Source: Atractiella rhizophila (Eukaryota). Taken from it: 64,000 nt of DNA. Every line of letters begins with the position of its first letter. The stretch's first letter is position 1. Of this stretch, positions 1 through 39,886 are shown piece after piece. The DNA is taken from contig MU271391.1 in the NCBI GenBank assembly GCA_021432655.1, forward strand, positions 1 through 64,000, given 5' to 3'. The notes under the pieces are model-generated. The model had not been told where the DNA came from, did no database searches, and worked only from the letters and a program-made list of their open reading frames with translations. The position numbers were made by a program, and so were the translations under genes.

Positions 1-767
1 TCATATTCCAAAACGCTTCTCTTAGCGGCTCAGAATCGCAGGACCTGTGTGATTCAGGACAGCTAATGGCGCCTGTCATCCGCAATATTTTCCACCAATT
101 TTCCACATACACTCAGTGTATCCGTTCTCAAAGATGTCAGAAGGAACTTTTCTCTTTGTCCACAACCTCCTCGCACATTATATCTTGATGAACCAAGCCG
201 ATTGCCTCCCACCCAACCAATTGATTGTTCTGGAAGCTCTAAAATTTACTAGCTTCTCCCACTAGCTCCCACCCAGTGCTTATACAATGGGATTGATTCA
301 CACCGTGCATTGTTTGTCACACTTTCTCAAAGCGCACAACCCTCCCGCGTAAAATGAGGGTGCCAGGTAACACTGGGGCATAGTGGTACAAATGGTTGCG
401 GCGTCGTAGTTGAGAGAGTGACAAGACTTAAATATCTTAAAATGCACAGAAAGAAATATCGCGAAACGTAGAAATGCTTCAGAAAATGATTAATATGATT
501 GCTAGCAACTCGAACTTGGGACAACCAAGCATTGCACTTTCATGCTAAAACCTGCTCAGAGACATGACATGCATGGATGACACCCAGTGTCTAAAGGAAA
601 AGAAGGCGCACCAGGGGGAGCCTGGTAGATAGAACACGACTCCTGCTAGGACTCTTGTAGCTTCCCACTCTTTCCTGGTTTTATTTGGCGTGGGAAAGGT
701 TTTGAGACATTGCCACGCGACGCCGCGACGCGTCCCGTCAATAAGCATGAGCTCACAAAACGGCCGT

Positions 768-776
768 TATATAAAA
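768..776 (+). promoter_or_regulatory. TATA box of the glycosidase gene
   Basis: TATATAAAA about 50 nt upstream of the ATG at 825. Confidence 0.55.
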
Positions 777-824
777 GGGCTCTAGAAACATTCCCCTGAT
801 TTATCCTCCCCTGCACCTACCAAA

Positions 825-3800
825 ATGCCTCCCAAACGAAAAGTCTCGCAGAAAAAGGCACGTCAAGAGCCGTCGACTTCTTCTGAGACGTCTGAGCTGA
901 CGACGCCAACGCCTTCCACCTTTCGCTCCCACGACAAAAGCGACAAAAGTAGCAGAATCGCCAGGGACGACTCCAAGGGGATCGGAGGCGGAAAGGACAT
1001 CGGTGCACAGGGACTAGGCATTGGAGCGCCGCCTCAAGGCAACCTCTTGGACTGGTTGCGTGCTGAGATACTCCGAGGAAATGCGGGAGATCAAAATGCG
1101 AACGATAATGCTGGATTTCCTTCGACATCATCGCAGAAGGTTCCAGCGTCACAAAAATCGTCTTCCGGTGGCAACGAGCGAAGGGTTACGAGCGCAGAAC
1201 TAGACTCTTCTTCAACAGTTAGACCGGGTTCGACCACCAACGTTCAGGCATCCCGTTCAATAGATTCTCTCGCTCTCCTCGCAATGGATTCCTCCAGGCC
1301 TTCGTTGCATCTTCGTACCTCCACAGGAGGGACGCACCATCGACCCTCTTCCTTCGTCTATACTCCCAGTTCTTCCTTCTTTAATCCGCATCATCCCCGT
1401 TCCAGGACGCAGAGCCAGATGTCCAGCTTTTCGATGGGGAGCAATACCAGTAGTTGGAAGCCATTTCCAACGCCTGGATTGAAGATGCCCGAGTGGGAGA
1501 GGGAGGAGGATCCGCTGAATAAGTGGATCAGCACGGAGGAGAGGAGGCTGAAGGATACGGCGGACACAGGGAGCGATGAAGAGAACAGGAAGAAGAGGTG
1601 GCATTGGAAGAGGTGGGGTCCATATTTAAGCGAAAGAAGTTGGGGAACGGTGAGGGAGGACTACTCTGCTGATGGTGCGTTCTGTTCTTCATTTGGCCAA
1701 GTATGGTGGGGAAATGTTGATTTTTTTGAGTGCAGGAAATGCTTGGACTCCTCAGAGGCTAGCCTGACAGGTCTCTGATGGTACAGACAAGTCAGCTTTA
1801 TTGTATTTTGCTCATTTTGTTGAACGGTAGTTACAGCCTCTACAAGGCGCTCTGGTCTAGGGAGGCCACAAACTACTTGGTCAAGTAGGAGGGCAATTTC
1901 GGAAACTTCAAAAACTCTCGGCTTCCAAGCTCGCACTCTCAGCGTATTTCCCCCTAGTTAGGATGCTCGCTCGCTTGTCCTTAAACAACCGAACTCAATC
2001 CTGGGGTGCATTACCGGATGTTCGCCACAGTCTGTTGAGCGGACGTACTGTTCTTGTGTACGTAGTATTATCTTTGGCAGGAGGAGCAAGGTGTCTGAGA
2101 GGAGAGCGGGTAGAAGTCTAGCTAACTTCCACTCCCGCAGTCTTTACTTCTCTTTCACAAGTTTTTTGAAGCTCCGCTATAGAAGCATACAAAACAACAC
2201 GAAACGGTTGAGCTCGCGTTACAAGTCGGACAGTACCAAAGTCAATCGAAGGGGAGGGTGTTACGTGTTGCGTTTACACTGGTTGTACAACTCACTCATC
2301 TTCCGACCCCAACCATAGTCACTGTGATGTACAATTATAGCTTTCGCGCGTGGGTAGGTTGGGCAAGGTAGGCGGACGGAGTTCGAAGGTGGTCATCCGT
2401 TGCCAAGCGAAGACAACTTGTCTGGCTATAACAGTTCTGGATTCTTTGGCGGAAGCTTTTACAAGCGGGGACGGCATAGAAAGGCCAATTGGGTGGTTCA
2501 CTTTAACTCGTCGTCAAAGACCTTCTGCGAGAGTTCTTTGACCTCCAGAAGATGAGGCACGTAGAATGCGACCTAAAACTTCTGCGCCTTTCAGCGGGTA
2601 CGCACATGGCCTCCCAACTGCAGCGGTTTTAAGGTGAGTATCGATGTAGTTGGTTTACTGTAAACTCCACTCACCCTAACTTCCCTCTTTTGCTGGATGC
2701 GACCCTAACGAGGCAGCCCAAAGTACATGGTAAGTGCCCACTCGTTCAGATCAACGAAGAAGCGTTTCAGACCTAGCTGGTATCGTTCTCCCTACCACAC
2801 CTTCCGTCTTAGGGTACGACGCTTTTTTCCCATGAGGGTAAATAGGCCGTACGATTCCTATAGGGACCGCATTTTCACAAAGGTTAGGACAATTTGTTAG
2901 TCGAGTAACAGTCCATTCGTGCTGTTCTTCACTGTGCTTGTACTAAAGACTAGGTGAACGCGCTACGACCTCCAAAGCCAACAGGCAATAGGGGTAGGAC
3001 GGTGAGGAATACTCACTCTATTATCTTGACAAATGAGGTGTCGTAAGGACGGTTGCGGACGGAGTACTATAAGCTGTTCAGCCGTAACTCCGGTGGTGTC
3101 GAGAGCTTTGCTCTTATCTTGAGCAGGCGAAGAAGGGAAGAGGATAGGTATAAAAGTAGTTTGTCGAGGAGCAGGACTTATCGGCCTAGGAGTCTTTCCA
3201 AAAGAAGCAGTTGAACTGAGCGTGCTGGCGCGTAGGGGGCAAACGACCGTGCAGGCTCTTCTGCTTTACCCGTGGGTAAAAGCAAGGAAGAAACCGTCCT
3301 AACTATTTCGGCCCGTAACACGCGACCCATGCTACACGTCTTCTCTCAAAACCTCAAAGACGGGGACTCGAACTTGGCCTCCTCGGTCTACTCAGGCACG
3401 AGAGTCTGGAACATACCGGCAGACGTAGAGGTAAGCCGTGAGGTAATCCGTACACACGTAAGTTTAAGGTGTGAAGGAGGAACAGACGTTTGACGGTGAG
3501 GAAGCCGGATACGACTCCCTGCTATACTAGCACCTTCCGCAGGAACTGCTTTCCACATTGCAACAAGGGTGGCATCTCTGCAAATATTAACGAGAGCAAG
3601 AGGCATTTGTAGTTGAGCCCTTGTTGTTGAAGAAGTCACCAGACCTACGGCAACGGCACTGGTAACCTTATAGGGAACCCGTACCCCCCTGGTCATCCTC
3701 GTCCCCTAAGCAACTACACCTTCATCTTAGCAGGTTCTAGGCCTAGGAGCTCGCAAAGTCAAGCTACCAGTTAAACATGTCAGCGCCATCTCGTGGCAAG

Positions 3801-5439
3801 CAGCTAGCTTTGCCAAAGGAAGTAGAACCCATATTGGAACCCTGCTCCTCTACAGGTGCTGGTCGACAAAGCCTTCTCCTAGACTCCTTGTTATACATTT
3901 CACCGCCCAAGCCCAGGAGCTAACTTCCGACACTATGCCTACCTGCAACGTAAACCCAGTAGCCTTAGAAATCGTATGATATAATCCACGTTATTGCGAA
4001 AGTGTGGCCAGGTCTATATTCATTCTCTTTCCTGCTTGGAGCTGTTTGTGTAGGGTTATGAATAGCAGTAGCTTTCGCAGCCACAGTTCCTAGAGTATGA
4101 GACGTTGTAGGGCAGGGGAGAAAGCTAAGAGAAGATTGTTGACCAGTATTCCTTTGCGCCTAACGCCCATGAACATCTCTTTAAAGTACATACTTACGCA
4201 GCCGCACGACAGATCTATCATCATTTCGAGAAACTGCAGAAGAGGCACCAAAGGATTGTGTTAAGTAGAGTCGAACCAAGAAAGTTTGAGTTTCTCTTGG
4301 GTGGAAGCACTAATGGTTGAGGTTTGTTTGCGAGGAAGTCGTAAAACAGGAACGGTAAGGTGTCGCGTTCTCTCTTTCGCTCCGCGACTACTAATAGTCT
4401 CATTGGTCGTTACGGTAGGAGAGGGGTAGATTTGTGAGACGAGGACCTTTGTAGTACCCCTTTCACCNNNNNNNNNNNNNNNNNNNNNNNNNNNNNNNNN
4501 NNNNNNNNNNNNNNNNNNNNNNNNNNNNNNNNNNNNNNNNNNNNNNNNNNNNNNNNNNNNNNNNNNNNNNNNNNNTGTCACCTTATGGTATCCGCTCTCT
4601 CTCCGTCGAACACAAGGAAAAGCCGTACTCCATGACTGTCAACAATCAAGAATTCAGTGTGAACTACTGGCCAGGAGACTCCCACAGTCCTATGTTTGGC
4701 GGCAACAGCAATTGGAGAGGACCTATCTGGCTCGCAACTACATTCCTTCTGATTGAGAGTTTGCAGAGGTTCTATCAGGTTCGTTGTCCACATCTTGATG
4801 CTGAAATTGCTCAGAGGATTATGTAGTATTACGGCGATTCCTTCACTATCGAGTGCCCGACTGGCTCAGGGACGATGATGAATCTCGCTCAAATCGCTGA
4901 CGAGATCCAGAAGCGTGTCATTAAGATTTTTGCTAGAGATGACGAGGTCGGTCTTCCCATCCTAAGTCGTCCAACTGGCTTTACTTAGAAGTGTGCAGGG
5001 GAGAAGAGCATACAACGGAGGAAATGATCGCCTAGACCACGATCCTCACTTCCGCGACCACATCCTCTTCTACGAGTACTTCCACGCCGACAACGCGAAG
5101 GGGATCGGTGCTTCGCATCAAACTGGATGGTTGGTCATTTCCTCTTCCAATCAGACCGGATGGTGATGCTCTTCACACAGGACTGGTTTGGTAGCGTGGA
5201 TGATTTGGCAGTCGGGAAGGAACATCCCTGTTCCTCAGACGCCGAAATCTGCTGCTGCTCACTACTTGTGAGTCGCTTCCTTACCACCAGAGACCAATGG
5301 CTTATTCTGCGCGTGTAGCGACGAACACGTCCCTCCTACGCCTGGAGGATCGGAGTATGGGGACAGCTTGAGCATGTTCAGCAACTACAGTGCTTACGCT
5401 CCGAGCGAACCTGCCAACTTGGAGCCGGATGAGCTTTAA
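825..5439 (+). CDS. YMR196W-like / MGH1-like six-hairpin glycoside hydrolase (GH63-related), multi-exon; central part is present only as reversed sequence
   Basis: Exon 1 ends [24 protein letters not shown], followed by an intron at 1675-1735. The reversed block supplies [49 protein letters not shown] and [15 protein letters not shown]. After the gap come [24 protein letters not shown] and [21 protein letters not shown]; stop TAA 5437-5439. Confidence 0.9.
1749..4467. other. Reversed (non-complemented) segment of the glycosidase gene
   Basis: Reading 4467->1749 without complementing gives C CAC TTT CCC CAT GAT GTT TCC AGG AGC AGA GTG TTT AGA TGG GGA GAG GAT ([17 protein letters not shown]). 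This continues the frame of ...AAT GCT TGG AC at 1738-1748 and contains GT..AG introns. The left boundary is uncertain by about 2 nt. Confidence 0.95.
4468..4575. other. Assembly gap (108 N)
   Basis: Run of N directly after the reversed block. Confidence 1.
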
Positions 5440-5877
5440 GACAATGCATACACATGGCATGGACTCAAAAGTGTGCTATCTGGCGTTTTCTGGAGATTTG
5501 GACTGAAAAGGATTACAGGAATTTCATGATTGGTTTTGTGGGCTCAAAATAGAAGGATTTGTGACTGTATACTCGACATTCTTCAATTGTAGATTTCTTA
5601 TGGTGTTTCCGATAAGCGTGTGAGAGGTTCGATGGAGTTTGGTTAGATGGCCGCGTGAGACAACACGGAGACGCAACGAGAAAGCGGATAAGATTCGATA
5701 TTGAAGGCAGGAGTGGTGATACATCTCACAATTACACTAAAATTCCAAATCACAAACACGAACGGTGGTCAGACAACCATTCTTCGAAAGTCCATACAAC
5801 GAAACGGAACGCGAAATCCATGGATGTCTCTGAAGGAAGCGAAACCAAAAGCACAAATCCCCCCGTCGTCATTGCTC

Positions 5878-6869
5878 TCACTGCAAGCCAGACTCTCCCA
5901 ATGCACCGGCTCCCGTGACGCGCCTCAACTCCTCTTCGAACTTCTCCGCCTTCTGCTTCCACGCGTCCCTCTCGTGCATCAACTTGTTCACTTCGTCTTC
6001 CAGCGACTTCACGTGTTCCTGCTTCCTGGCTCGGGATCGGCGAGCAGCTAACCTGTTTCCGGAAGACTGTGGTAAGTATATATTGGTCATGGAAATGAAG
6101 GAATGACGGACGTATTCTGCCGCCGTTTGATTTCGATCGAGGAGAGGAGGGATTGTGGGAGCTCTTGTCCGTCATCCCCGAGGTTGGAACCGTCTGCTGC
6201 TCGTACAAACATGAGTGTCAGCCGAGATGGCCTATTCTAAAGTGAAGTGAAAGGGAGACAAACCTTGCAATGAGTCGTCGATTGGAACTTCGTCGTTCGC
6301 GGTTCGTCGTTTCTTGGTTGGATTTCCACTGTTCAGCACGTGAGTGATTGGTTCCTCCCGATCAAGAGTCAAAGGAAAGGCGTACATCTGAGGGTCCGGC
6401 TTCCGAGAAGTTGCAGACGGCGTAAGGTACGTCCTGTGGAACAAGGGTCAGCCCTTGCGTTCATAGACAATGACGGATAAAGGACAAAGGGAACATACCT
6501 GGTTTGGGTGGGAGCGTCATACTCAATCAGTGGAGCCATCTTCCTCATCCCTCTCACCCTCCTGGTATTGTCACCGTCGTCCTTCAAGCTATTTACGGTT
6601 CGTTGAGTGTTCGACTGTCTCGCGCCTCCCGTGCTCCTCTTCCTCTTTCCGCTGGCAGTCACCTGCTGTGGCTCGTCTTCTTCCTCTAATTCATCCGCGA
6701 TGGTAGGATCGACGTCGTCTTCCACGTCGCCATCATGATTCGTGAAGAAGTCGAGGCCGGAAACGGGTATGTCGCCTGAATTACGATTGGTCTGGAGGAA
6801 GCCAGTAGCGGCTGCGAGTTTCGCGAGTTGCTCGGCTGATGCGTTCGCTGAGAAAGGGACGGTAGACAT
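5878..6869 (-). CDS. bZIP transcription factor (multi-exon)
   Basis: N-terminus MSTVPFSANAS...; the last exon has the basic region and zipper NRLAARRSRARKQEHVKSLEDEVNKLMHERDAWKQKAEKFEEEL. Confidence 0.85.
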
Positions 6870-20337: not shown

Positions 20338-23300
20338 CTATCGACTGGTTTCCTCAAACGCCTTCCTCCTCTCCCTCACATCCACGTTGATCACCTCGGT
20401 CTCCTCGTCCTCCTTCTTTCCCTCCTGCCGGTCCGTATCCTTCGCCCAATTGCTCAATCCAAGTCCAAAACTGCCTCTAAAACTCGGCAGGGCAGGCAGA
20501 TAAGCAGGTTTATCCGGACTCCAAATCAACACTCCTTTCTTCTTCGACGTGCTAGGAGAAGCCTGGCTTTTCTTCACCGTGTCGACGTCTTTCTGGTGCG
20601 AGTGGAAGAAGCCTGTTTGTGCTCCACGAGAGGGGAGGAAGGCAGGCTTCGGATGTGGGTTCTTTGACGGTGTGCTCGGCGCAGATGTCGAACAAGACTG
20701 TGATGCGGTGAAGGTGGGGGTGGAGGCGGGAGGAGAAGGCGTTGTTGTTCCTGATGGGGTTGTAGTGGAGTGTGCCATCTGCGTAGGACTCGAATGAGGA
20801 GAGGTAGGAGAGGAGTGTGAGGACGAGGAAGAAGGCGTAGTCAACGCTGTCGTATTCGTTGAGGACGACGTGTTGGAGAAGGAAGAAGAAATGGAACTGT
20901 TCGACGCTGACATCCTGAACAAGTCTGCAATCGGGGTAGCTGTCGCTCCAAGTGGTGCAGCACCCGGTGGCGAACTAGAAGTCCGTGGCGGCGGACTTCC
21001 ATTTCCCAGTCCAAAAGAAGAAGATAAAGGAGGGGAAGGAGGAGCTTTCTCCTCAAACGCCAGCCTAAGATCTCTAACACTCGGTCCTCTCTTTAGTGCC
21101 TTCTCTCCGTCAATCCGTTCAACTTCCACCTCTTCCACCTCCTCATCCTCCTCATCTCCTCTCATCCCAACCATGATAGTCCTCCTCTTATCCTCCCAAT
21201 CCTCACCTCTCTCAACCACACGCTTCTCCCTCCTCCTCGGCGCCACATCCTCAAGCACGAAAGTCTGCGGGAACTTGTCTCCCTTCGGCGTCAGTTGCGC
21301 CGTCTCATCGCTTCCCCTTCCCTGCCCTTGTCCCTGTCCTTGTCCCTGCTGTTGCAGAGCGAACGCCTGGAACTCTCTCGGACTCCGTCTCTGGGCTGAC
21401 ACCTGCTGATACTGTTGCTGGAGCGCAAACTGTTTCTCCCCCCTCGGACTCGGACTCGCAGCCGGACTAGGAGTCCCAAACCCCTTCTTGACGTCGCCCA
21501 TCACCTCGACTTCCCAACTACCTTCCTTGATCCTCGCACTCTCACACCTCCTCGCAAATAGCGTCTCCCTCTCCGTGATCAACAGTTTGAGGAAGCTCGG
21601 AGTGAACCTGAGCGTTGGAGAGAGGATGAGGAGCAAATTTGAGAGCGTCATCTTCGTCTTGTCGGCATGTTGGGAGAGGTGGTGAAGATGAAAGGCGAGG
21701 GAACGTAAGAGGTAATAGTTCTCGGGGGGCAATGCGCCGCCGAACAAATCTTTGAGCTTGTCCAGCAAGATCGATCTGCTCTCTTCCGTCGAGGGGGACT
21801 GTGGAGAACCGGGAGAGTTGAGGGAAGAAGGGAAGGTCGCGCGGGTGGGAGTAGCGGTCGAAGGGACTAGGTTGGTCGATAGCGCGGGGTGGTTGGTGTG
21901 GGAGAAAACGAGGGAGTCGACGACTGTATCCAGGGAGTTCGACAGCACGGATTCGGGCACTGTTCTCCCAGTGTTTTAGGATCGTCTTGGTAAAGGGGAG
22001 AGAAAAGGACGCACGCTCTCGTAGCCAGCTCTTGAAGACGCTGGCGACAGCATGAGGGTCAAGATCCGCCGGTCCACATTGTAAAAGGTCGAGATCGATG
22101 CCTGTCCCATCATCCATTTGTCAGTCAACATTCTTCTCCTTCCTCATCGCATCATCAAGGCATTCAAATATCAACTTTATATATTGTGCTCAGCTTCTTT
22201 CAGCGCCTCACTTCACTCCGGAAACCAGATCGTCATACGAAAAACACTCACCAGCACCAAACACCCTCCTAAGACCGTCAATCTCCCCCCTCCCCCCAGG
22301 AACTCTATAAACGCCCTCCTCCCTCTCTCCCCAAACCTCCAAATACTCCAAACACCTAACCGCAATAGCGGGCAACCACTTCCTCGTCTCCACATCGAGC
22401 CACTGTCCATTCCTCACCCCTCCCCCTCCCCTTCCATCTCCATCCGCCCCATCCCCATCCTGTCCGATTTCCCCTCCAACGGCGACCACAGATCTAGTTC
22501 CGAGGGGTACGAGACGCGATCGTGAGACTGCAAGTTCTAAAGGAACGCCAAAGACCTCCTTTTCCACATTCGGGACGACCTCCATCCTCCTCCCAAACAG
22601 CATCTCTCCCTTCCCCTTCCCGCCCCTTCCACCCGCCGACCCGGGGCGACCGGTGGCACCATTCGCAGCGGGAGAGCACGACGCGGATGTGGAAGAAGAG
22701 GAAGAGCCGGCAAAGAGTGGTGATGTGGAGGAGGACCGGTGGCGAAGGACGGGAGGGAGGGCTTGGACGCCGGTGTTGATGCGGTCCCGGACCTTTGTTA
22801 GGTTCTGTTTGAGCCCGGCGGGGAGGGCGGGGATGGGTGGGAGTTTGGGAGGCTTGTTGAATGCTTGGCCGAGCCCGGAAAGGGAGGCGGAGGGTGTGGT
22901 GGAGGGAGAGGTCGAGGAGGGGTGGGGAGTGGTGGATGAGGAACGGACTTTGGGGAGGGAGGGAAAGGAGGGGAGGTGGTCGGTGGAGAAGGAGAGGCCG
23001 GGGAGGATCCTGTATGGAGAGCGGGAGGTGGATGGGGTCGATGCATGGGAGGCGGCATTGGGTGAGGGAGAGGGAGATGAGGATGGGAGGGGGATGGAGG
23101 GCGAGGAGAGGGAGGGAGAGGGACCGTGTGCGTGTGTGTTGGATGTGGATTTGAAGGAGGGTAGACGGATGGATTTGCGTTTTGGAGGCGCTGGATGCGT
23201 CGGCCGTCCCATCCCTAGACTTAGACCACCCCCACTTCCATTCCCATTCTTGCTCCCACTCCCACTTCCGCTTCCGCTGCCGCTCATGATCCCCAGCGTG

Positions 23301-23743
23301 GTCCCACTCCGCTCGAGCGTGACACCGCTCCTTCCATTCCCACTTCCTCCATCTCGTGGCGGAAGAGTGCGCACCTTTGCCTCCCTCACCGCACTCCCAC
23401 TCCCATTCCCACTCCCATTCGGAAACGGAGGCGCAGAAGTGGTCGTGTCGACATGCTGCAACCGCGTCCCCGCGCTCTCGTCAGAGTCCAGCTCCTCGCT
23501 CGTCGTCGACAGGGAATCGTCCGACTCGTCTCCCCTCCTCCTCCCTCCGGGACTCCTGTTCCTATCCAAGTGGTGCCCATTGGAATGGCCGCTTGACGAT
23601 GCGTGCGAGTTGGATGTGGAGGAGAGATGGCTGGATGCGGATAGATGGTGGGAAGGATTCTTGGGCGGAGGCGGGGGAGGACGAGTGGTGGAGGTGGATG
23701 AGGAGGCGGAGGAGAGATAGAGTGGGATGGTGGGCGTGGGCAT
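20338..23743 (-). CDS. RhoGAP domain protein with long S/P/G-rich low-complexity arms
   Basis: VFGVPLE, LPAIAVRCLEYL, EEGVYRVPG (arginine finger), DPHAVASVFKSWLRE, LPPENYYLLRSLAFHL, KMTLSNLLLILSPTL. Confidence 0.88.
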
Positions 23744-25221
23744 CCTCTTCTTTCTGCGAGTCCTTATAAAATGTATAGCCTCGACGATTAATGATGCTTG
23801 CACGCTTGATCCTTGCGAGTCCTCCGACAATGACAATGGCGATTGAATGTGAATATGGAATAATCAATCAAGAGACGAAAATTGCCCTCCACTCAACCCG
23901 ACTGATCAACGCGGCAGCAAGCAATGAGAATGCGTAATGAGAATGGAGTGGCTGTGATCACTCGATGCTGGATACTGGCGTATGCAGCTGCACCAAAGAA
24001 TACCTTCCCTGGGAATAGGGAACAGAGGAATGGAAGAAGAAGCTGAGCTGAGGTGGCAGCGGTGGTGGAAGAACCTTGGCCAGTTGCCGCCGGGCGATCG
24101 GAGAGCTGAAACGACTCCAAACGACGAGCTAGAAATGTCCATCTGGCCACATCTGGGCCTTTATCTCATCATCTCATCAGTATATTTCATGTCCATGTCC
24201 ATGACAGAACAGAAGCGGGCGTCCTTTCTTATTCCTATTCCTGTTCCTATTCCTATTCATGGTCGGAGCTGAGCTGAGCTGAGAATCGTGCTGAGTTCTT
24301 ACTGGGTTCTGGAATGGTCGGATAGAGCCTGGCACGGATGGTGGATGACGCAGAGCTCTCTTCTACCTTCCCAGTCGTTTTCCTCGTGCTTCGTGCGTCA
24401 GAGTGTTGGTTAACGAATCCAGCCCGTCCATGTACGGACCCAAGCACGCCTGAGAACAGGAGAATGGAGGAGCAAACCCAAACAGACCTGACCGAATTCT
24501 GCCTCCAGGCGTCCAACTTGAACGGTGAAAACAACCTGGGAGTGCAGCGTTTTTCTCTCTCTCTCTGGGTGGCAGACCGTGGAATGACAGCAAGATTTTA
24601 ACTTCCTCTTTGACTCTATTTTATGTTCAGGAGGGTAAGTGGAGCGAACGGATCTGTTAGAACCGTTCGAAAACGGCTAAGGGCATCTGAGGCGCTAGTA
24701 TCGATGGATGGACAGCATTGCAGATGACATGCATGAGCTTGGAGATGAGAGGAAAGCGTACATGTCGCCCAACAGCTTCCTTACTGTACCTCAGAACTCC
24801 TCAAGCAGCGCTCAGTGTTCGTCGTGACATGAAAGACTGCAGTCGAGAGCTCTGAAATAATGTTCAAGTCTTCTTGTGAATGATCGCAGGATTGAGTTTA
24901 CAAGTAGGGAATACCACTGTAGAGAAGTTGGTAGCATTGCCTGTTGAAGAGTGGAGTGAAGAACGAGGGAACTTGAAGTTCATGCATTCGCTCAATTCTT
25001 ACTCAGAATGGAGCTCCTAACGATATCTCGGCTTGAACCTGCAGGACTAGTATATCCGCTAGGACATGGGTCTGGAATCGTCTCTCCATATCTCGGCTCT
25101 GTAAAGTTCCCGAGCTGGGATGCTTTCAGCATGTCAAAGTCCCTTTCCTTGTAAAACGCATCCAGGTTTCGTTAGGATGTCTAGTTGCTCGAATTGTTAC
25201 TTCCCTGTTCAAAGCTTCGTG

Positions 25222-25676
25222 ATGGGATGAGGATCGCCCGACCGTTTTGAATACTCAACGTTCCGATTCCTGCAAATGCCTCATTCTAACATTGAAGGCG
25301 GAAACGAGACTTAAGGTGCAGTTTGGAGAATCCGCAGTCCTCAGTGGGCGATTAAGTGGTCCTTCTCAAAGTCTTGAGCAGTTCCAGAGATTCAGCCAAG
25401 TTGACGTGCGCTGCCGATGCCATTTTCGTTGTCGGCGTTTGCGTTCAACGGTTTTGCTGAGTTACAAGCAACTCGCCAGTGGCTTGTCGCTCTGCAGCAG
25501 TCGCTTGAGCCATAATCAATGCCGAACAACTGAAGACAAATCGCCTATGCTGCCTCAGCAACTGCCTAGACTTGGTTTGAAACCGCCTAATAATGGGATG
25601 AGGATCGCCAGACTATTTTGATAATTGACATTCCGATGCCTACAAATGCCTCATCTTCTAACATTGACGGTGGAAA
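25222..25676. repeat. Pair of imperfect ~83-bp direct repeats (25222-25304 and 25593-25676)
   Basis: ATGGGATGAGGATCGCC...TTCCGAT(T/G)CCT(G/A)CAAATGCCTCAT...TCTAACATTGA..G.GGAAA is present twice, about 370 bp apart. Confidence 0.85.
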
Positions 25677-26755
25677 GGTTCTTGTTCTTGTTCTCCTGTT
25701 AGAATGGGGATGCCACGACACTTTGGCATGACCCATCTACTCTTACCTTACAGCCCAGCGACCTCGCTTAGCACCACACGCAGGTCGACAGTGCTCTTGC
25801 CCTAGTTCTGAGATTCGAATTCTTCCTGACGCACACATGCTGACACTAAAGCTGTTAAGTCACTAGATATGCATCACCTGCTTTCGGATGGACGACCAAA
25901 GTTTTGGTGACCTTGTATCTCTCCTACTTTAGTTGAGCTCCAATGCTTCTCTTTCCCATCCCTTCTTGCCTGAACGTTTCAACATTCCCCGTCTCCCCGC
26001 AGATCTCAGAACCAGAATCGCCATCCCTTCTTCTTTAATATCCATCCATCGACCATTTCTTATTATTAACAGTGAGAAGGCTCGGGGGACTGCTTTCAAA
26101 CTTTCCTCAAACCCTCCTTGATGTTCCTACAGAACCGATCTAATCGGAGATTAGCACAAGAGGCATGGCTCGCTCTCAGAACTTTCCTCATTGCAGAATT
26201 TGCTCATGAGCCACATTTCAAGAGCAGAGCGAACTCCGTCGGTCTGAATCAGAGAACCACTTTGCGTCTGTGGCTCGTCTCCTCTCGATTGCACTGTCGT
26301 CAACTTGTGATGCTTCTGACGGTGCTTCCGACGGCGATTAATATTTGAAAGAGCGGGGGTTGCGCCCGAACAGAGGGAAACACCGACTCTCAATGAACAT
26401 CCACTTCCCGAAACACACGAGCCTTCTGATTGCTTCGGTTTGAAGCAATACAAAGTGGGTTCACCTGCGAATCAAACGTGTTAGACCTTCTATATCGGGT
26501 CGATCAGCATTATCTCGCAGGGCGCTTGTTGGCACTCGCAGCTCTTTCGGCCTAGCTTCAAGCTCAAGGTCAGACTTGTTGGCTACCGAAGTTCAAGAAC
26601 CTGTTCTCTCTCCATGAATCGTTGCTGTCTTCCGTCGCTTCAGGCAACTTGAAGCGCGAAATTGGCTGATCCGTGCTCCTGGCCACAAAAGGCGACTGTC
26701 TCTCCAAACTTCGCACGACTTCCTTGCCTTCTCTCTATATCATACTGAGCTGAAA

Positions 26756-28773
26756 ATGGCATCCACGTCTCCTGTTGACCCAATTACAGGAGCAATAACA
26801 CCTGTCCCATACACGAAAGAGCTAGCAGTACGTCCCCTGCCCCAACCATCCATCAGGCACTCACTCCCCTTGTTCCTTCCCAGTTGAAAAATGTGAGCAT
26901 CATTAGACTGAATTCTTGTGGCTCAGATTCAACTTCATAGGTCTACCCGCTGGTTTGTGATTGCCTTAATCCTCAAACATCACTTAAAGATCTGGACAGG
27001 TCGTGGGCCAGTTCTTCTCTTTTGGTATGGACTTTGTGTGTTGTCGAACAGCTCACTCAGACCGAAGTAGCTCTCTTTGGCGTATCATCGCTGCAGTTTT
27101 ACTACTGCTTCAAGTAAGGCCAAGTTCGTTCGGTTTCTTTCAGCCTTACACGTCGAGACAGGCTTCTTGCACGCTCAACGCGGAAGGAAACGTACAACTT
27201 TCTTACGCTTGTCGCCTTCGCCATTCTGGTACTCCATCCGTTCTACTTCTTACGAAGTTTTGACGAACGTGCGAACAGGATTTAGCAGATCAAATTGGGA
27301 AAGGCGAGTTTTTTTGGAAGTACATCGAGTCGGCTGTCACCCTTGGACTGTCGTCAGCCTTCGTCCCAGGACCCAAGGTCAGTTATGTGAATTCAGTTGT
27401 TGGGGGTCAGTCTGTCCTATATTCTTTCATTTTCCAGCCAGAATTCTAATCCGATCACTTGAGCAGGCGCTACTATCCCCATAGCTTGTCATATATACTA
27501 CATGGTCAGAATCTACCGCATCAGTAGGAACTGGAAGTGGCGAAATCTCGTTGTTGCAGGCCTCGGTTTTTGCTTGCTAGTCAGCATCATGGCGGTTTGT
27601 ATTTCGTCTCAACCCATTTCCCCCACTCACATCTCTCAAGTCTGTTTTCGCCTTGATCACTGGACGAGTTGGATTCCGGAAACCTATCGACTATGGACAT
27701 GATCTCAGAACGTGCGTAGAATGCTTTCGCGATAAGAAACATCTCTGAAAACTACTTTGTCTCCCTTCAGGCTTCCGTGAGTCGTGCCTGTTCCGTCTCC
27801 AGGACATCTTGCTGACGTGCCACACAGCGTTCCATGGCTCGCTGGTGATGCCTTTGTCGATATTGTCTTGTCCCTGTAATTCCTTGTTGAATAAGGGACT
27901 TGATTGATGACTGACGACGCGCTTTAGCATTTTGGTTGTTTACCTCCGATCTCAACGCTCCGAGTTCAAAGATACGAATGCTCTCATCAACAAGTGGATC
28001 TTCATTAGGCAAGCTTGATTTTTCTCTTACCACCTAATATCTGATATACTTTTAGTTTGGAGTCTGGGGTAGGTGTCTCGTCATTACGACATTTCGTCAG
28101 AGCTGAAAGGTCACCTTGAACTTGAAAGTTGCTTTCAGCAATTTGCGCTATGGGTGGTAAGTGATTCTACCTGACCTTTTCCCCCAGGCCGATGTAAACT
28201 TGTAGATTTGCTGCTTGCCGTCATCTTTCCCAACGAACCGTATCACTTTGCGTACGCTCACCCTGTGCTCTTTCGCGCCATCTAACGTTTGTGTTGGAAT
28301 GAAAGTGTGAATTACATTCTCACAAGTTTGTGTCTTCCCTTCGTATATGAAAGCCTGCAGCTGAAGATTATTGGCCGATGTAGAGGTCTATATCAACTCG
28401 GTGAGTCCTACATTTTTCAGTTCACGACTGCAAACTTATATCTTTACAGGTCCTCATTCTCTTCCACACTGTGACCCGCAACCGAGTTAAAGGTCGGGAC
28501 ACTTCTTCTGATGGCAGCACGAATCCACGTTACACCGGTTCTCTGAAGCAGGGGGTGTGTGTAACCTTTCTTTCCAGAATTGAATTTAAACATCTTTTCC
28601 AGATTACTGTTGAAACTGCTGTCGTGACGCAGAACGACGACGTACCTCATGCCCAAGTGGTCAGCTTCGAAGGCCAGCCAAAATATAAATCTCGCGATCA
28701 TCTTGACGATGAAGAGGCGTCCTACCGCGAAAAAGGGACTGTCGCCGTCCAGGTGGAAGATCACGACCGTTGA
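26756..28773 (+). CDS. Multi-pass membrane protein, DUF6534-like, with many short exons
   Basis: MASTSPVDPITG start; hydrophobic exons (LFGVSSLQFYYC, YMVRIYRISRNW, LVVAGLGFCLLVS); VYINS|VLILFH near the end; polar tail ending VEDHDR*; 9-nt microexon at 26884-26892. Confidence 0.65.
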
Positions 28774-29043
28774 TGCCTCTTTGTTTCGTCAGTTTGTTTG
28801 CATTAAGTATCGTTCAATCATCCGTCGTTGTAGTTCAGTTTCGGTATATGTCAAAATCCTCTTAAGAGGGAGCTTCTGTCTCGTCAGATCGCAATAAAAT
28901 CATTATTTGCATTGTTTCCCTCTTCCCTGTGTTCTGCGTGCTCAATCTGCCTCCGTGAGTGCGAGAGAAAGAGTTCTGAGCTGGCACCAGGTATAAAGCA
29001 ATGGAGCTTTACAACGATCACAACAGCAACCCTCGACCATAGA

Positions 29044-31503
29044 TCAGGCAACACTAGTGGCTCGACTCGAGGCTCTACTCGTTCCTCGGCTTTCCGTGCT
29101 CCTCCTACTCTTTTCTCTATACCTCCTATTGTATTCTCGTTTTTTCTCCCGCTTCTTCTCACCTTCCTTGCCTTCCGCCTTGGCTATCACACGCCTCTCC
29201 ACCTCCCTCACCATGGTCCCTAATCCTTCAAGGGATACGCCGACAAGGTCTGCTGCTTTCGAAAGAAAGATGTTGTAACGCGGCGGAAGGAGGCCAAACG
29301 GATCGTACTCGTAGACAGTGTAAGGGTTTACAAGTCTTGGCGGGAGTACGAGTGGTTGTGGTGTGCGGGGTGGGGAAAGAGTTGGCAAAACCTCTGTCTT
29401 TGAAGTGGAAGGCAGGTAGATCCTCGAGACATGAGAAATGTAGTCATCAATCTCTTCGACAGACATGTCAGGAGGCGATCGTTCAACACCCGTACTAATT
29501 TTCTTTCAGCGCTGATGAAAAGAGCAGCTCAAGAAATACTGACCAATCCTTGATTTGTTTCAACCACGTATCGATATGCTCCCTCTCCTGCTCATCGGCC
29601 CCTTCCCACTCGATGCTCATCTTGCAACAAACGACGAGTGCAGCCATGCACAACAGTTCAGGTTGTGCTCCAATCTCTCTCGAGAACTCAGCTCCACCGC
29701 GACCGCGGCTCTTACTCCTGCTCCTACTCCGGCTGACACCCCTTTGACGTGTCGTCCCACCTCTCCCTCGATTGGGGGTCCGACTCCGGCTCCGGCTACG
29801 ACTGGGGGTGCGACTTCTGCTACGTCTGCTGCCTTCGCTGCTGCTGTCCTCGTCCTCTCGACCGGGATGGGGATTGACAGTCCAGGACAGCGCATGAGGC
29901 CATTCCGAAATCATTCGCTTCGTTGCTGAGTAGATTATTGCTGCACTATCACTGAATATTTGTTAGGAATGCAGCAGCGGAACGGCTGACGAGATAAGCC
30001 TAATTGATGTACCCATCCTGCTAATAACACCTTCACTTCCAGTAATGGAAAGGAAATTCCTCGTGCCTCGAACATCCTCGCAAACCGATAAATCCAAGTA
30101 GAAAGGCCTGCAGTCTTCTTGGTCGGATGAGCTTGAATGACGTCCTACCACGCTTATAAACAATTGTGCGCCGATGCAAGAATGAAAGGACGGACGTGGA
30201 CCTCGAGTCCTTGCCACACGCTCTTGCTGATATGTGATTTGACCTCATCATCCATTCCAGCCTCTTTCAGTCTTCCGCTTGTAAGTAATCGAAGATAAGG
30301 GATGTAGCCTTCCCGAGCAAGGTTGCAAATGACTGCTACACCTCCAGGAGGAGGCAAAGGGATTCGGAGGACGTGAAATGCTAGATACAAGATGCAAAGT
30401 GTGAAGTGAAGCTTTGGATGAGAAGTATAGATCGTGTTTGTCGTGATTTGACGTTGGCGTGTTGGCAAACCCGAACGCAAGGGGAAAGGAGGGTAGCGCG
30501 GAGGAACTTCTTCATCCTCATTCCGTTCCTCCTCCTCCTGAGGCTCCTGCTCTTCATCTTCATCTTCTTCTGTGCCAGAGATAGGCTCGGAAGATGACGA
30601 ATCGCTGCTCTCCTCTTCCATCTTCAATTCTTCATCCAAATCCTGGTTTTCAACCTTCATTTGTGTGGCTCCATCCGAATCCTGCTCTTCGGTCTCAAGT
30701 GGAGTTGGTCGCAATACTTCCTCTCCTAAGCTGCTCAGGTAAATGCTCCAAAGTTCTCTAACAACAATCTAATCCACCTTGAGCTCTTTGTTACTCACCT
30801 ACCATTGAGAGATTCACCTCGAAGGTAGGCGGTAGAGAGAGTAGTTGCGTCAGCGTGTGAGCTTGCAGATGTAGTACTCGGGTGAGGAGCAGGAAATGGA
30901 GGAAGTGTGCTCTCGAACCGTGATCCTCTGTCGAAGACGACGTTCAGAATGCGAACCAAGTACTCAAAACATGTTCAATGACCGCGAGGCTAAGCAGGGA
31001 TGCAGAGCTCGATTTCATAAAATTATTTGACAGTTGGAACTGAACTGTTTTCTTAGTGCGATTGAAATAAAATGTGATGTCCGCTCTTCCCTACGTGAAG
31101 ACGCTAGAGTTTGATTTTATTGGAAGAGATATTTATCACTATTTAGGATACAAGGACTTCCCTTCTTAAAGAGCACAGACTGGAAGAGCCAAAGCAACAA
31201 TTGGATGAACGAAGCATATTCACGAACCACGCTCGTCGCAGTCCATTGATACATGTCTGAAAGGAACTTACTCAAGCTCCTCCCCCTCTCTTTCTCCCCT
31301 GCTCTCTTCCCACCTTTCCGCCCTTTCTTCACCGTTCTCCTTTGAAGCGTATACTGGCTGCCGGGGCCAACCTCCAGCTCATTTGTCTCCCGAACGTAAT
31401 TCTGCAATACATGTCCCTCGTCCCTACACACAAGGATGCTGCTGTTACCTGGAGAGCGACGCCAGCGGGTGCAGCCGCAGATGGGGCAAGGAGGTGGTTT
31501 CAT
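29044..31503 (-). CDS. RRN7: RNA polymerase I core factor subunit Rrn7 / TAF1B
   Basis: N-terminal zinc ribbon CPICGCTRWRR...LVCRDEGH, VVRELWSIYL, TLCILYLAFHVLRIP, YIPYL, PELLCMAALVVCCKM. Confidence 0.8.
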
Positions 31504-32300
31504 GTTTTCATGAGCCCTAACCCTGCTTCTAGTCGACAAACAAGGTTGGAGGAGGAACTTTTATTCCAACGAGCCAGTGCCCAGTGAATGGATGTTGTTG
31601 TACTTATTACAAGTGGTCAGCACCTCTCTCTTTTATGTTCTAGCTGCTTTGTTTCTTTCGCTATACTGTCTTCCACTTCCGTTGCGCAATACCTCTTTTT
31701 TGGTTAAAATGAACCGGAAGGGCCAAATGAGTGTGCGCATTAACGTGAAGGTAGAAAATCGAGCAATATTCATGGAAATGATGGCGAAAGAGCGGGCTGA
31801 GATGATGAAAGTTGTTAGCCCATCCGAGAACAACGACCAACAAAAGTCCCAGTGCTTGCTTCGTAGTCTGATGTAGCAAGCTATGCTCCCCGTCACTACT
31901 CCACTGATTTGCGGTATTCAGTTGTCATCCGCCCGTATTTTGCGCGAAGAAAGTTTCTGTCTGTTGTGAAAGAGCAGCCCGATGACATGAATCCATGCAC
32001 AGAGCAGTGTCATCTCCAAATAGCGCTGCAGAGTCCTGAACCTTTCAAAGAAAGCAACTTTCGGAGACCGGGCTGCGTTCAGTTCGGCTGGACGCTCTAA
32101 CTTGAAGCTTTGTTGTCGGAATGGCATTCTACTTCACTCTTTCAGTTTTTCTGAGCTTGGCAACAAGAACAAACACCACAGGCATACTAGAAGGAATGAT
32201 GTCCTCTGGCTCAACAAAAACTCGTTGCTTGATGGTGTCTTGAGCAAACAGCTAAGGAGCACCGTCTTCACGACAAAATCAGTCAACCGCAAACAAAGGA

Positions 32301-38399: not shown

Positions 38400-38890
38400 G
38401 AGATCGTCTGCTCAAAAAATGCAAAACAATTAAAAAAACTGAAGGGGAAAACTCAAGAAGCCTGAAGGGCCCAAGGGGGACACAGAAAGAAAGACACAAA
38501 AACAAAGGGGAAGAAAAGTAAAGAAGACCAAAAAAGCAGCCAAGAGCAGCAAAGGGCGAGAAAGAACCTAAAAAAAACTAAAAAAACTGTGCAGAGAGCA
38601 CAGCATAGATGAAATCCGCGAAATTCGCGCCAATGGCAACCCGCCGAAACTCCCCCCAAGTCAAAACCAAAGGAACCGTCCCTAATCCGCGCCGCAAACT
38701 TTGAAAGGCCGGAAAAAAGGGGGGCAACGGTAACCGGGGTTAATCCCGCAACCAAAAACCCAAAAAAACGCAAGCCAACAAAAAAAAACCGGTTTGAAGA
38801 CAACAAAAAAAAATGAACTTCCAACTTAAAAAATCCCGCCCTTGCCCAAAAAAAAAAAGAACGCAAAGGGAAAACCCTTCCTTTCCCAAT
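38400..38890. other. T-depleted, homopolymer-rich stretch (probable low-quality sequence) between DYS1 and MRX11
   Basis: Numerous A5-A11, C and G runs and very few T on the + strand, unlike the flanks. Confidence 0.7.
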
Positions 38891-38949
38891 GTTGTTTAGT
38901 GGAATCGTAGCTTATTCCAGGACTAGCTTGCATGCCGTCATCACCAATC

Positions 38950-39886
38950 ATGTTCACCCGCCGCCTCTTTCAATTCCAGCCTTTCGCCCGCACCATGCGA
39001 CAGCGACCTTCCAAATACATATACCCTCAAACTCGCCAAGTCGCACAACGGCGTTCCATGTCAATTTTTCAATCCACCCTGCAGAGCTTGCGACAGAAAC
39101 ACCCAGATGTTGATCCTATATCTTTGATTGCCGCCTTTTTGATCCTTCACGAATGTACGGCATTTCTTCGCTCTTTCAGTCATGACGGGATAATATCCTA
39201 ACAATATGGGCTCTTGGAATAGTGACAGCCATTGTCCCCCTTGTACTAGGATTCTTTGCATTCGATTACCTTAACACTGGCACATGGATTGTCGAACGTC
39301 TTTCTGCTATTTCCTCTCCTCACACTTCTCCGGTACACTCATCCACATCCTCATCCACGTCAGACGAAGAATCATGGTCGGAGGGGAAAGAGACCCCGCG
39401 AAAGCCGGGGACGTCGTGGGCTGGAGAAAAGCTGCAAGAAACAGTTAGGGAGTGGATAGTGGATGGGAAGAAGGCAGCAGAGAAGGTGGGGAGGAAATGG
39501 GGGATCATGGGGTTCCCAAAAGAGGAAGGGAAGCTTTCCAAAGACCCTGAAGAGGCGGGAGGAGCGATCCCAGTGGAACTCGGCAGTGCCACTGAGGGAG
39601 GGGAGCATAAGCGCGTTGCCGAAGGAGTTGCAAACTTCGTAGCTGCTTATGCAGCGGTTAAGGTCCGCCATCCCTTCATTTCTCTGTGTCACCCTTCATG
39701 TGTTCCTGCATGAGCTGCTTATTGATGGGGATGTATGGATAGATTTTGCTTGTCCCCAGAATTTTGTTGTCTGCTTGGATGGCACCTTGGTTGGCTAGGA
39801 CAACTGTTGGACGGTGGAGAGCAGCACGTAGGATGGCACTGAAAAAGATGGAGGAGCAACCTAAGAAGAGAAATATTCGTGGATGA
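38950..39886 (+). CDS. MRX11: Mitochondrial FLILHELTA-family protein (Mrx11-like)
   Basis: Arg-rich presequence-like N-terminus; AFLILHE|VTAIVP signature; AAYAAVK|ILLVPRILLSAWMAPWLAR. Confidence 0.8.

Follow-up and report, generated by a model that had tools for sequence, protein, structure and literature searches.

In the first 64 000 nucleotides (nt) of contig MU271391.1 from the fungus Atractiella rhizophila (assembly GCA_021432655.1, positions 1 to 64,000 of the forward strand; hereafter the window), a gene for a six-hairpin glycosidase of the GH63/MGH1-like type is interrupted by a block of 2719 nt, at 1749..4467 and with no strand assigned, that is stored backwards without complementation. 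Read from 4467 to 1749, the block carries the remainder of exon 2 and all that follows up to the exon ending MVVSGQSDRRL, ~770 codons. The letters of the block are reversed, its ends are exact, real DNA and transcripts run normally through the locus, and the public annotation splits the gene around the block. We conclude that this is almost certainly an ordinary, intron-rich gene of which 2719 letters were reversed without being complemented by a software or data-handling error, the DNA itself being normal.

The block is coding only in the backward reading

According to a preliminary description of this stretch, none of the six normal frames holds a convincing open reading frame (ORF) between 1749 and 4467, and this was borne out. 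Counted from stop to stop, the longest ORFs inside the block in the normal frames have 118 amino acids (aa) on the forward strand and 105 aa on the reverse complement, and the four as-given ORFs of at least 95 aa that fall wholly or partly within the block, out of 141 scanned in the window, matched no Pfam family. The backward reading gave stop-to-stop ORFs of 304, 167 and 104 aa.

Relatives of the gene were gathered with as-given sequence only, the query being the conserved end of exon 1, and the matches were Pucciniomycotina proteins of ~1100–1330 aa with the families PF22422 and PF03200. Two such proteins, P0001 of Rhodotorula toruloides and P0017 of Puccinia striiformis, were compared by tblastn with positions 1–6600 of the window, both as given and with the letters reversed, and on both strands. 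Matches to the block were confined to the plus strand of the reversed text and involved residues 316–1023 of P0001 and 240–988 of P0017, with scores of 83–370 bits; after reversal, six to seven colinear high-scoring segment pairs (HSPs) were obtained, with E reported as 0.0. For the same two queries there was no tblastn match to the as-given block on either strand, and the matches in the as-given text were confined to the flanks, at 1395–1676 (residues 236–311) and 4578–5268 (residues 1057–1239). In the un-reversed locus the HSPs with P0017 are colinear from residue 162 to residue 1248, all on the plus strand. That a simple reversal restores the missing middle of the glycosidase (given the putative label 'YMR196W-like' in that description), as had been proposed, was thus upheld: the colinear tblastn matches occur in the reversed text only, and when the reversed block is translated and aligned with homologs, its colinearity with the as-given flanks holds.

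Could the backward match have arisen by chance, the block being an ordinary inversion (that is, a reverse complement) or decayed non-coding DNA? Mirror-frame ORFs of 187–283 aa do arise elsewhere in the window, so that length alone is no proof. Those other mirror ORFs, however, sit in regions of positive k-mer score (see below), several of them under normal genes with Pfam hits, and a chance match would have to produce six to seven colinear HSPs in the reversed text where tblastn on both as-given strands stays blank. Because the as-given block is unmatched on either strand, an ordinary inversion is excluded, and we hold this explanation as a whole to be vanishingly improbable.

Contigs of sequencing runs leave the stored text at 1748

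Seven sequencing runs were listed for positions 1–4467 of the window, and of the words sampled, the best three contained shares of 0.37, 0.35 and 0.26; the expected share is 1748/4467 = 0.39 if the reads contain only 1–1748 as given. The contigs of four runs (X1 to X4) were placed on positions 1–6600. X1 and X2 represent one sample and X3 a second one; none of the runs with these words is recorded as RNA, the sample type of X3 and X4 is unlabelled or guessed, and the evidence used is that their contigs skip GT..AG introns.

X1 and X2 each yielded one contig that fits the text up to 1748 and then runs out into the loose end CCACTTTCCCCATGATGTTTCCAGGAGCAG, whose 30 letters are the exact backward reading of window positions 4467 to 4438. 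The X1 contig covers 1–1748 and has 444 more letters past 1748. An intron-less contig of X3 departs from the text at 1675 and continues with AAATGCTTGGAC and then CCACTTTCCCCATGATGT, which are exon 2 running over the true junction. The join of 1748 to 4467 could therefore be read directly in a spliced contig, which confirmed the claimed in-frame connection with exon 2. The boundaries of the block are exact to the base, given that the contig fit ends at 1748 and that the first unfitted letter is that of window position 4467. Each of the four runs had a depth of 0 throughout the 12 bins that span 1761–4400; this is background only, as holes in the cover prove nothing.

The same contigs decide whether the strand is truly mirrored in the chromosome itself, the unprecedented rearrangement that the preliminary description had named as an alternative. 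In favour of such an event stands the as-given text alone. DNA has a 5′–3′ polarity, and an inverted segment rejoins as the reverse complement, not as the reverse; moreover, contigs from two samples run normally past 1748, and a spliced transcript contig spans the true junction. A real rearrangement is excluded by contigs that follow the un-reversed order past 1748, and we give it next to no credence. As to the possibility that raw reads match the junctions as stored, the opposite was seen: the contigs leave the text at 1748 and continue with the backward far end of the block. The earlier judgement that a computational reversal without complementation is the most likely cause was sustained by this normal order in the contigs of two samples.

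Between the window and the X1 and X2 contigs we also observed scattered differences in 1–1748 and 4576–6600. In X3, 6 nt are inserted after 1111, and at some sites, e.g. 4752–4892, there are two contig variants at different depths. These variants and scattered differences suggest strain or haplotype polymorphism.

The restored glycosidase gene

With the block un-reversed, the locus reads as one gene of ~1287 aa (X being counted at one break and at the gap), ~770 residues of which come from the block. In each of the nine homologs tried, the restored model aligned in a single blastp HSP of 1096–1327 columns, at 53–61% identity and 1293–1351 bits. Exon 1 (825..1674, plus strand) is correct as given, with an open translation, and its last ~90 aa align to residues 162–235 of P0017. 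It is followed on the plus strand by intron 1 (1675..1735, 61 nt, GT..AG), which is present as given, has the best-scoring junction and is skipped by the spliced X3 contig. The first 13 nt of exon 2 (1736..1748, plus strand), encoding G-NAW-T, close the correct text ahead of the block.

In the backward reading the block contains eight introns of 40–61 nt, similar in size to the confirmed downstream introns of 48–52 nt. Seven of them are of the GT-AG type (4303–4254, 4038–3978, 2940–2888, 2699–2643, 2352–2305, 2285–2229 and 2056–2017); the eighth (1826–1786) is GC-AG with a GCAAGT donor, and the earlier claim of GT-AG introns in the reversed block therefore stands for seven of eight. In the as-given text the ends of these eight introns read GA..TG or GA..CG. 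All four of the peptides and motifs that had been quoted for the reversed block, including MVVSGQSDRRL, are present in the un-reversed model once a 57-nt intron is removed.

Beyond the gap, the C-terminal exons (4578–4776, 4825–4944, 4997–5128, 5180–5267 and 5319–5439, within 4576..5439 on the plus strand) are again correct as given and lead to the stop codon TAA at 5437–5439. The four introns between them are all skipped by contigs of X3 and/or X4.

PF03200, the C-terminal domain of glycoside hydrolase family 63, was detected on 4578–4778 at E 5.7e-6, its 25.8 bits exceeding the Pfam gathering cut-off of 22.4. PF22422, the MGH1-like glycoside hydrolase domain, is the part with which the catalytic (alpha/alpha)6 domain begins. 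On the as-given exon alone PF22422 reached 18.5 bits, short of the cut-off of 27; positions 1–111 of the family match residues 728–832 of P0017, and the backward reading aligns with residues 701–943 of P0017 at 63% identity. A predicted MGH1-like domain in the restored gene is supported only indirectly, through the homologs. A search of the PDB for solved structures related by sequence to P0017 returned 0 hits.

The closest points of comparison are the six-hairpin GH63/MGH1-like glycosidases of Pucciniomycotina that carry PF22422 and PF03200, such as P0001, P0017 and P0250 of Microbotryum lychnidis-dioicae. After un-reversal the Atractiella gene aligns with them from end to end and shares their conserved motifs, as well as an N-terminus that is long and divergent. 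It is the stored text alone that differs, with its backward middle, N gap and apparent frameshift, and nothing biological is distinctive.

The N gap and an apparent frameshift within the block

The block adjoins the sole N run of the 64-kb window, which consists of 108 N at 4468..4575 (no strand assigned). Contigs of X1, X2 and X3 have loose ends before 4576 that carry the same 30 real letters, encoding ..TRMLNEEEFL, and the N run therefore hides real sequence. In homologs, 23 residues separate DRRL from S-x-YGIRS, which would need ~65 nt; accordingly, the 108 N are either an imprecise estimate or include an intron of ~43 nt.

The un-reversed reading is shifted by one base at an AAAA run at 3200..3203 (no strand assigned), where HSPs in frame 1 and frame 3 overlap with both P0017 and P0001. 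When the backward reading is resumed 2 nt later past this run, no stop codon occurs in the remainder of the block. On the simplest reading, the shift may be a 1-nt homopolymer deletion in the stored block; a less likely alternative is a 44-nt GT-AG intron, which would delete 15 residues that the homologs keep. One could speculate that a homopolymer deletion would suit fill sequence of lower quality.

Public gene models and the probable origin of the error

Standard annotation had been expected to miss the block and to split the gene, and the public protein set agrees with this in holding two models of 201 aa, P0121 and P0314, both from A. rhizophila and both on one 75,253-nt contig. P0121 is N-terminal and spans 825–1481; it is identical to the window for residues 1–195 and then has 6 spurious residues, ending via a spurious splice to HFQRLD-stop at ~1461–1481. 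P0314 is C-terminal (4639–5439): it starts from the first ATG that follows the gap and agrees exactly with the translated as-given C-terminal exons; it scored 22.7 bits for PF03200, the cut-off being 22.4. As the public gene is split around an uncalled middle, in the way that a backward block would cause, the error most likely resides in the deposited assembly and probably entered it while contigs were being assembled or gaps closed, ahead of deposit.

One could argue instead that the deposit is correct and that the reversal, perhaps together with the N run, was added later, in copying, reformatting or deliberate alteration. Runs of N can be masks instead of assembly gaps, and the Logan contigs pass the site of the gap without difficulty, as the loose ends before 4576 illustrate; furthermore, placement of the error at the level of the deposit rests on gene models and not on the letters of the record. 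Yet a correct middle should have given a model of ~1000 aa or more, where the public set has two fragments of 201 aa, and among the 120 matches listed in the exon-1 search there was no protein of at least 498 aa from the same species. We consider a later alteration improbable, at a level well below that of a serious competitor to an error before deposit.

How such an error might have come about is suggested by the layout, in which correct sequence is followed by the backward block, by 108 N and again by correct sequence, with an exact left junction that has no N. A left junction that is exact to the base and free of N disfavours the misplacement of a whole contig and favours a partial gap extension or a contig end. 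Such a piece would have been flipped wrongly, being either reversed only or complemented in only one of two flips; these two mistakes would yield identical text.

Several points weigh against the conclusion that a normal gene was reversed in the data before deposit. The agreement of the loose ends with the backward reading spans 30 letters each and not the whole 2.7 kb. Over 1–1748 the X1 contig shows 5 differing letters and 2 gaps relative to the window, and the strain or haplotype behind the runs may differ from the one assembled. Restoration is imperfect, in that the un-reversed reading is not perfectly open and contains the one apparent frameshift at 3200–3203. That the error predates the copy analysed here is based on the broken public models rather than on the letters of the deposited record, and these models are indirect evidence, as P0121 stops inside exon 1 and not at the edge of the block.

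Orientation of the remaining window and neighbouring genes

The orientation of the text was scored with a 5-mer log-ratio, in which each k-mer is compared with its own letter-reverse, in windows of 500 nt; the training set was the 64-kb window minus the block, with a jack-knife over 4-kb chunks. Within the block the log-ratio was negative in 9 of 9 windows, with a mean of −66. The 241 windows outside the block had a mean of +62 (standard deviation 30), and the four among them that were weakly negative were isolated, with a minimum of −13. By this 5-mer orientation test, there is no second reversed block of ~1 kb or more in the other 59 kb of the window.

Two further candidate detectors were rejected. 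The length of mirror-frame ORFs is unspecific, for mirror ORFs of 187–283 aa are present elsewhere in the window, e.g. at 22345–23193, 24179–24835, 31064–31738 and 38441–39112. In codon-usage log-odds, the bias was too weak for telling real from mirror ORFs.

The other 59 kb hold genes for a bZIP protein, an FAD monooxygenase, GH31, RhoGAP, Rrn7, deoxyhypusine synthase, Tom20, Band 7, RING/LON, a protein kinase and a BRCA2-like protein. The bZIP transcription-factor gene (PF00170) neighbours the glycosidase at 5881–6540 on the minus strand. Its four introns, which read CT..AC in the text (GT..AG on the minus strand) and lie at ~6051–6109, 6197–6263, 6329–6385 and 6433–6497, are all skipped by contigs of X3 and X4. 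The word depth of X3 is 1100–6000 on the bZIP gene versus ~230–860 on the glycosidase.

Two other regions drew attention. The region 22211–23863 is open in several frames of both strands (551, 469 and 328 aa) and in mirror frames as well (283 and 209 aa), and gave no Pfam hit; it is probably the low-complexity N-terminal region of the RhoGAP gene (20341–21975, minus strand). At 23900–30100 (~6 kb) the normal ORFs reach at most 155 aa, and none of those of at least 95 aa gave a Pfam hit. This region is not a second reversed block, because its k-mer orientation score is normal, that is positive.

Discussion

The block in the Atractiella gene has much in common with the mis-orientations met in draft assemblies and gap fills: it lies beside a gap, its junction is exact to the base, it is contradicted by reads, and annotation is broken around it. 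The usual mis-orientations, however, are reverse complements and can be detected by a six-frame search, whereas here the letters are reversed without complementation and are invisible to standard homology tools. Phrase searches of a paper library brought up no report of blocks reversed without complementation in deposited assemblies, and the candidate passages returned concerned other subjects. Searches on A. rhizophila did not turn up how its assembly had been made.

A tentative extension, which we think clearly less likely than not, is that a recurrent bug in assembly or gap closing writes partial gap extensions backwards, and that further reverse-only blocks lie beside N gaps in the present assembly as well as in other public fungal ones. 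If this were true, exons would be hidden from all six-frame searches, with false gene losses and split models as the result. A block of this kind escapes BLAST, hidden Markov model and gene-finding tools alike; the 5-mer orientation log-ratio could be used to screen further assemblies for this error at little cost. The main use of the present finding is as a curation flag and, possibly, as a pointer to a recurrent pipeline bug.

For the organism itself, the block is no biological feature and is of no consequence, and the gene around it is an ordinary one, apparently expressed. Some 770 codons (~770) are absent from the public proteome of A. rhizophila, and the glycosidase shows as two unrelated 'hypothetical proteins' of 201 aa, with possible distortion of counts of carbohydrate-active enzymes (CAZymes), of orthology calls and of gene-loss calls.

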